Shown here piece by piece: positions 3,001 through 4,423 of a stretch of DNA of 4,423 bases. Within the stretch, counting starts at the first letter, position 1; the number at the start of each line of letters is the position of its first letter. Made by a program: the position numbers. This stretch comes from a virus (lineage: Duplodnaviria > Heunggongvirae > Uroviricota > Caudoviricetes), in IMG/VR virus record IMGVR_UViG_2537562192_000006; one strand, given 5' to 3'.

Positions 3001-4423
3001 TGATAAGGCTATCGCTCTTGTCAGGGATCGCAGCAAATTTGCAGAGATATCGAAAAATTATGGTTATTTCATGCCGAAGCAGCAGGGACTTTCTCTGAAA
3101 GAGCTTCAGAAGGAAGCCAGCAAAGTAGTGGCTCAGGCGATCAAGGATGGCCGTGATGCTCAGGCTGCGAATGATGAGTTTTTAGCAGCGTATGATTCAC
3201 TGCCGCATCAACAGAAAGTTCAGCAACGGAAAACGCAACAGCTTTTACAGAAGTGGCAGCCGTGGGCGGCGGGCGATCCGGTTAAACAGGAGTTTGTAAA
3301 AGAGGCTGCCGCCAATGCGCCTGCTTTGCTGGAACCTGGTCGTGAAAAGGAGGTGGAAATTTATTACCAGAATCACCTCCGGGATAAAAAGGCAGAGCAT
3401 GAAAAGGCGCTGGATTATAGCGCTTCCGCAGCTGCCGAGAAGATCAAAGGCTGGATGAAGTAAAGATATGCGGCAGTAACGCGCTCCCCGTTAATATCGT
3501 TCACTTACGCCCGACCATCGTGTCGGGCTTTTTTTACTGGAGTCTGTATGGCTTTTTCAGATGAGCAGCGCCCTGAAGCGCAATTGGGTAACCAGAACCG
3601 CAGCAGCCTGAACATTAAGCAGCCGGGCGAAAATTACTGGCAGGATTTTTTCAGCAACCCGCAGAATGCCATTGATCACAGCACATCGTTCAGCCTCGGT
3701 GATGTATTGCCAACAATGGGTAAAGGTGTTGCCCAGTCCGTCCGGGGAACAGGGGAAATGGCCCGTGGACTCGGTGATGCGATGATTCAAAGCCCGGTAA
3801 AAACAGGGGCGCGTATTTTAAATGAGTTCAGCCGTATGGGGCTGCCGGGTGTCGCAACTGTGCAGGATATTTTTGCCGGTGGCAGCAGGGGGGCTGATGA
3901 GGTCATCGATACCCTGCCTGATGGCAAAAACGCGGTTACTGATACTGTCGGTAAAGGTCTGAAGGCAACCGGTAAGGCTGTCAGTGATGGTGCTGAAGCC
4001 ACTGATGAATGGCTGACCGGTAAGATGTCGCCGGGTGCAGTTCGTGCGCTGAATACGCCGATGACCGAAGGCTATGATCGATTCTGCGGTCTGGGGTAGC
4101 GAAGGGTGTAAACCTGATTGGTGCGCTTGTACCTGATATGGTTGTTGGCGGTGTGGCTAAAAAGGTGGGTGATGTCACACTGCGAAAAATGCTGACCGCC
4201 GGGCTGGAGAAAAAATACATCGCGGCAGGGATGCAGCCGGAAAGAGCCACGGCACTGGCAGCAGAAGCTGTCGATAAAGAAATGCCGGATTTATTCCAGG
4301 CGGGCCAGATCACCCATTCCACAGCCAGTGCACAGGGGCAGAGTGCAATGGCGGCAGCAGATGCAGTTCTTAATGCGGATTACTCTGAGCTGGCGCAGTC
4401 ACCGAAATTTCAGCAGACGTTTT

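Follow-up and report, generated by a model that had tools for sequence, protein, structure and literature searches.

A reading-frame break private to one record in a giant polyvalent-protein gene of a Shiga-toxin prophage

In programmed -1 frameshifting, as in dnaX (A_AAA_AAG) and the lambda tail-chaperone genes (G/GT), overlapping frames are joined by a -1 step at a homopolymeric run, and the two-frame layout of a true programmed frameshift is conserved across homologs. In the 'shifty stop' cases, such as the +1 shift of prfB (CUU_UGA) and the G7 compensation in herpes thymidine kinase, a slippery codon stands directly 5' of the stop. Stops beside slippery runs promote shifts, and low-level frameshifting can offset indels in G runs (review, PMC5009743). 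The locus described here resembles both groups, in that overlapping frames are related by -1 at a homopolymeric run and a slippery codon directly precedes a stop. In contrast to dnaX and lambda, however, it has no tandem heptamer, stimulatory structure, Shine-Dalgarno (SD) sequence or conservation in relatives; and, unlike prfB and thymidine kinase G7, the shift would be -1 rather than +1, the run comprises only 4 G, evidence of selection is lacking and the site itself is doubtful.

The gene in which the break lies also has described relatives. The term 'polyvalent protein' is used here as in Iyer et al. 2017 (PMC5512222), where it is predicted that virions package the phage-encoded members and deliver them along with the DNA. 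The giant protein of 933W-like Shiga-toxin (Stx) prophages is probably packaged too. Its representatives WP_106913357.1 (E. coli 2012EL-2448), YP_009907945.1 (ArgO145 gp44) and ORF B31 (AP005153) resemble the gene studied here in position, in start codon and in 92-99% nucleotide identity over 876 nt. Unlike these PHROG 616 proteins, the present copy is broken by two +1 insertions, and only its first ~291 codons are on the contig.

The gene and its relatives

The window, that is, the whole stretch of 4423 nt that we analysed, is the entire contig AEZR02000049.1 of the draft assembly GCA_000194435.2 (E. coli 99.0741). By homology, the locus is part of the late region in Shiga-toxin prophages of the 933W-like (Sepvirinae) type. 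Its closest relative, E. coli 2012EL-2448 (L001), is 99.19% identical over all 4423 nt, with 34 mismatches and 2 gaps. The upstream gene order is shared with that strain, and the giant gene directly follows a 420-aa gene and begins at a common start codon. As far as the contig end, the gene shares 99.1% identity with the initial 874 nt of an 8376-nt LPD38-domain gene of 2012EL-2448. In 2012EL-2448, phage ArgO145, strain OkiPb01717 and the Stx1-converting phage AP005153, a single unbroken gene of 8376-8421 nt starts at the ATG that corresponds to 3548. The homolog's product of ~2791 aa carries LPD5-LPD1-MuF_C-LPD38 domains and aligns with PHROG 616 over its full length. These domains occupy residues 1050-2679 and so fall beyond the contig end, which is near residue 291; no Pfam match was obtained for the fragments of the gene that the window contains. 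The region is common: a search with the last 1024 nt found 186 phage records and 425 E. coli records, the latter from 424 of 5426 complete genomes, each genome carrying up to 3 copies.

Shorter versions of the gene are also on deposit. PHROGs 26030 (992 aa) and 20690 (939 aa) are families of N-terminal fragments, the homolog matching the first with residues 1-994 and the second with residues 1-746; the existence of separate N-terminal-fragment families suggests that split or truncated versions have been deposited in a number of phage genomes. An 801-nt contig assigned to Xanthomonas pisi DSM 18956 (NZ_JPLE01000183.1) shows 91% identity with the E. coli Stx-prophage gene and is probably a contamination of the Xanthomonas assembly. 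We also considered whether the '(x2)' annotation in AP005153 denotes a split gene, and rejected this; it reflects overlapping and antisense ORFs over-annotated around one 8421-nt ORF.

Several other features lie upstream of the gene. At its start (1-240, + strand), the window holds the C-terminal YadA-anchor domain (Pfam YadA_anchor) of a trimeric autotransporter adhesin gene, cut at the contig start. This cargo slot upstream of the virion genes is YadA-like in 2012EL-2448 and the window and is occupied by Lom and Hok/MokW in ArgO145 and OkiPb01717; the YadA-like version is found in only 20 complete E. coli genomes. Of the 34 mismatches that separate the window from 2012EL-2448, 26 lie in a 409-nt patch (1027-1435) within the gene of a 218-aa protein (824-1480). 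Because none of these is private to the window, the patch is a recombination mosaic and not an error. A glycine-rich protein of 83 aa whose C-terminal part is hydrophobic (1939-2190, + strand) is called 'bacteriocin' in RefSeq relatives and corresponds to PHROG 594; the private substitution at 2086 falls in its gene. Finally, a strong intrinsic-terminator-like hairpin, GCCCGAC...GTCGGGC followed by T7 (3509-3537, + strand), ends 11 nt 5' of ATG 3548, and the GGAG SD of the giant gene lies just 3' of the T run. Most phage relatives align only from ~3488 on, implying that the intergenic stretch before that point is variable.

Two inserted bases

The frame-2 ORF 3548-4099 encodes 183 aa and ends ...GYDRFCGLG at a TAG, while frame 1 has a TGA at 4075-4077 and thereafter no stop up to 4422. 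Past that TGA, the frame-1 translation begins SILRSGVAKGVNLIGALVPDM... / SILRSGVAKGVNLIGALVPDMVVGG.... The sequence thus agrees with the preliminary description of the locus, which had reported the end of the frame-2 ORF and a frame 1 that stays open from 4078 as far as the window reaches. A single continuous protein of the relatives is the homolog of both frames and, because they match one and the same protein, their juxtaposition is not due to chance. The same description had suggested a probable frameshifted gene or a slippage site, and the single long ORF of the homologs bears out the first of these. Measured against these intact orthologs, the window carries a frame-disrupting lesion of the kind expected of a frameshift pseudogene and, on this comparison, the two frames belong to one gene broken by a frameshift. 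The features of the break are collected in Table 1.

Table 1. Coordinates of the interrupted gene, its lesions and the private changes downstream
Feature	Position	Strand	Basis or remark
Giant polyvalent-protein gene, 5' 876 nt, interrupted, runs off contig end	3548-4423	+	Homology
Inserted C, GAT-C-GAT, lesion one (+1)	4079	+	Missing from 17/17 aligned homologs and from L001-L003
15 nt between the lesions, frame 3 still encoding ancestral DSAVW	4080-4094	+	Translation
GGGG with one extra G, lesion two (+1)	4093-4096	+	Homologs all TCT-GGG-T
Premature TAG	4097-4099	+	Closes frame-2 reading after 183 codons
95-aa downstream fragment, annotated as its own gene	4138-4423	+	Gene caller of source annotation
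Private A>G, K>E in ancestral frame; A7 run of relatives becomes AAAGAAA	4279	+	Absent from 19 loci; homologs DKKMPDLF
Private T>A, L>Q in ancestral frame	4307	+	Absent from loci compared; homologs FQAGLITH

Alignment with three relatives, and then with 17, showed that the window has two single-base insertions, 14 nt apart. The ancestral reading, in frame 2 up to the inserted C, continues in frame 3 after it and in frame 1 after the extra G. At this place the DNA of the relatives reads GGC TAT GAT GAT TCT GCG GTC TGG GTR GCG AAG, which encodes GYDDSAVWVAKG. The block NTPMTEGYDDSAVWVAKGVNLIGALVPDM is invariant in all 17 aligned homologs, and both insertions are absent from 17/17. When both bases are removed, the window translation becomes colinear with all homologs, NTPMTEGYDDSAVWVAKGVNLIGALVPDM included. 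The two insertions are also the only gaps in the 4423-nt alignment to 2012EL-2448.

This differs from the cause that had first been proposed, a one-base deletion at the G run: the relatives have GGG there, not GGGGG, and lack the C at 4079, so that the window differs from them by two +1 insertions. Because a net change of +2 is equivalent to -1, the preliminary description saw a -1 relation and supposed that one G was missing. Adding one G would indeed restore the frame arithmetically, but it would place RFCGLG where the invariant DSAVW stands. Homologous prophages had been named as the place to look for GGGGG together with a single long ORF; they have the ORF and, at the run, GGG. Nor are they laid out as two separate genes, the arrangement that had been held to count against a single broken gene; those examined have a single ORF.

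The source annotation lists two hypothetical proteins, the 183-aa EIH44163.1 and the 95-aa fragment. The earliest ATG/GTG/TTG of the open frame 1 is ATG 4138, 39 nt past the stop, and neither GGAG nor AGGA is found within 18 nt 5' of it; the earlier observations that no in-frame start precedes 4138 and that no SD-like sequence lies there are both borne out by the sequence. The Met matching ATG 4138 sits internally, at residue ~197, in every homolog. Judged by homology, the stretch from 4138 to 4423 is an internal piece of the giant gene, with no independent gene there, and the record's two hypothetical proteins are parts of one giant Stx-prophage gene.

Distribution of the allele and its place on the contig

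The broken allele was sought in several collections. With a 101-nt query (4040-4140), 0 of 376 E. coli records and 0 of 168 phage records reach 99% identity; the best match, 97.0%, has a span of 99 nt, that is, both bases are missing from it. An exact 37-mer containing both insertions had 0 matches in GTDB representative genomes, IMG/VR and JGI metagenomes. A gapped pattern tolerating either insertion retrieved 14 IMG/VR loci and 1 GTDB locus, all of 34 nt and so with no insertion. At the protein level, a search of ~15 billion proteins located the truncated 183-aa form on 1 contig, and the neighbouring 420-aa protein, with an identical sequence, on 81 contigs. The allele is therefore limited to one record while its flanks are widespread, a pattern expected of an artefact. 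A different lesion occurs in IMGVR_UViG_2713896798_000003 at the equivalent of 4184, ~90 nt downstream of the break: an independent +1 frameshift (A5>A6, CTGCGAAAAAATG) that leaves 7 stops in the annotated frame and is again a homopolymer indel in a single record.

We also compared the window with 19 fetched loci and the complete-genome collection to identify its private variants. There are only six: positions 8, 2086, 4079 (insertion), 4093-4096 (insertion), 4279 and 4307. Five of them are no further than 345 nt from one or other end of the contig; of these, four are in the last 345 nt, the break itself being 345 nt from the end. The probability of finding at least four of six in the last 7.8% of the contig is ~5e-4 by a binomial estimate whose cut-off was picked post hoc. 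Such clustering of private differences at contig ends or at a repeat boundary is again characteristic of artefacts, and the breakpoint is one that other drafts have in common. The residues changed by the substitutions at 4279 (K>E) and 4307 (L>Q) are invariant in every homolog seen. A query spanning 4240-4340 reached 98.0% in the best of 391 E. coli records, and the private haplotype 4279G/4307A had 0 matches in IMG/VR and metagenomes. In the part of the gene that is on the contig, the candidate signs of decay are these two missense changes downstream of the break; its 531 nt upstream of the break contain no private change.

The end of the contig deserves attention in its own right. Other drafts stop nearby: a 293-aa 'partial' protein, reaching 2 aa past the window end, is found on 25 contigs. 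Because other drafts end at nearly the same place, we conclude that the contig end is a recurrent, repeat-induced assembly breakpoint in a multi-copy region. Moreover, the last 345 nt turn to alleles typical of other lineages (4098A, 4145T and 4160A). A consensus drawn from more than one prophage copy would have this look, and natural mosaicism would look alike. The record also carries the locus tag EC970259_2557 under the organism name Escherichia coli 99.0741, the prefix looking like the number of another strain. A literature search with the assembly accession found nothing, and a search with the strain name gave no sequencing technology; drafts of the 2011 era, such as this one, were presumably built from 454 reads.

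Origin and meaning of the break

The break is private to one record and is not programmed. We consider it more probable than any alternative, though by no means certain, that it is a consensus or assembly error at the contig end. Both insertions and the two downstream missense changes would be such errors; all four are found in the final 345 nt of a short draft contig, whose terminus is a repeat-induced breakpoint. The up to 3 copies of the region in STEC genomes would be a setting in which assemblers collapse paralogous reads, and the giant gene in strain 99.0741 would actually be intact. We infer errors, and not real mutations, because the lesions cluster at contig ends, because two insertions within 14 nt are improbable as independent mutations, because the gene is clean upstream of the break, which an effect of the contig end explains more readily than evenly spread pseudogene decay, and because the allele is unique while its flanks are common. 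In these respects the locus is like contig-end consensus errors in multi-copy prophage drafts, which share a single-record allele, private differences at the ends and a common breakpoint, as judged here from the consensus sequence. Two facts speak against an error: the C at 4079 lies outside any homopolymer, the classic site of indel errors, and the lesion was kept in version 2 of the assembly. In addition, prophage genes of STEC genomes are often truly decayed.

The last points lend some credit to the view that both insertions are real in 99.0741, having arisen separately or in one error-prone repair event, so that the gene would be a very recent pseudogene in a defective prophage copy. We regard this as possible but distinctly less probable. 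The giant protein would then be cut after 183 codons, the last six of which (RFCGLG) are out of frame. The lesions do stand against intact homologs; the two private missense changes, at invariant residues no more than 230 nt downstream, could mean relaxed constraint; and, besides the retention of the lesion in version 2, other broken copies are on record, namely the A5>A6 frameshift in the IMG/VR locus and PHROGs 26030 and 20690. Against this, two independent indels no more than 14 nt apart in an 8.4-kb gene would be expected in ~0.4% of cases if the second were random. The 531 nt upstream, which would be equally unconstrained, have no private change; every lesion is close to the contig end, with a further private change, position 8, at the opposite one; and the allele occurs in one record only. 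We also looked for sequences that might have served as templates for the insertions. No inverted repeats suited to quasi-palindrome correction or template switching were found, and the search for direct repeats gave one pair with 9 of 10 bases matching, probably by chance.

A functional reading of the break is very improbable in any form. If it were a recoding site, programmed or acting as low-level compensation, a ribosome would pause at G_GGG_UAG_C, and the P-site tRNA-Gly would slip by -1 from GGG 4094-4096 to GGG 4093-4095, making GUA the next codon and giving a full-length product, ...GYDRFCGLGVAKGVN.... The geometry is suitable, since GGG re-pairs perfectly on G_GGG and the stop is in the A site. 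However, there is no X_XXY_YYZ heptamer, the sequence GGU_CUG_GGG_UAG allowing only a single P-site re-pairing on G_GGG; the predicted fold of the 84 nt from 4097 to 4180 has an MFE z-score of -0.97, with 26 of 200 shuffled sequences folding as well; and no GGAGG-like or other SD-like stimulator lies upstream. The product would have RFCGLG in place of the invariant DSAVW, and the site would not exist at all if the insertions are errors. One frame and GGG are found in all 17 aligned homologs, in the 14 IMG/VR loci and in the E. coli and phage records listed. With neither the two-frame arrangement nor GGGG in any homolog, nothing is conserved or selected, and the placing of a programmed slip last among the first proposed readings is upheld. 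Equally far-fetched is the narrower idea that the insertions are real, that the prophage is partly functional and that an adventitious 'shifty-stop' slip of -1 in a few ribosomes rescues the giant virion protein. Transcriptional slippage and phase variation were both rejected on the length of the run: runs known to cause transcriptional slippage are much longer, and 4 G is far too short.

Hardly any weight can be given to the suggestion that the gene is functionally split, its N-terminal part making a 183-aa protein and re-initiation at ATG 4138 giving a large C-terminal one. The gene caller did annotate 4138-4423 separately, and the candidate start is only 39 nt past the stop; but no SD precedes it, the corresponding Met is internal in all homologs, which are themselves single ORFs, and the arrangement is known from one record only.

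Overall, the gene itself is an already known Stx-phage gene, and the break, whether an artefact or a pseudogenising lesion of the ordinary kind, points to nothing new. A PHROG 616 gene is a single ORF of ~2790 aa and the window has no such ORF, so that this copy, as written, is disrupted. The biological weight of the break is small, and no new recoding signal is indicated. If a contig-end error is responsible, the consequence is one of caution in annotation, since the hypothetical proteins EIH44163.1 and the 95-aa fragment would be pieces of the giant gene. If instead the lesion is real, the default outcome would be a product truncated at 183 aa and a prophage copy that is defective, with low-level -1 slippage or inefficient re-initiation at ATG 4138 as minor possibilities that have no comparative support. 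One Stx-like prophage copy of 99.0741 would then probably be without a complete polyvalent virion protein, and this would bear only on the inducibility of this prophage as infectious particles.
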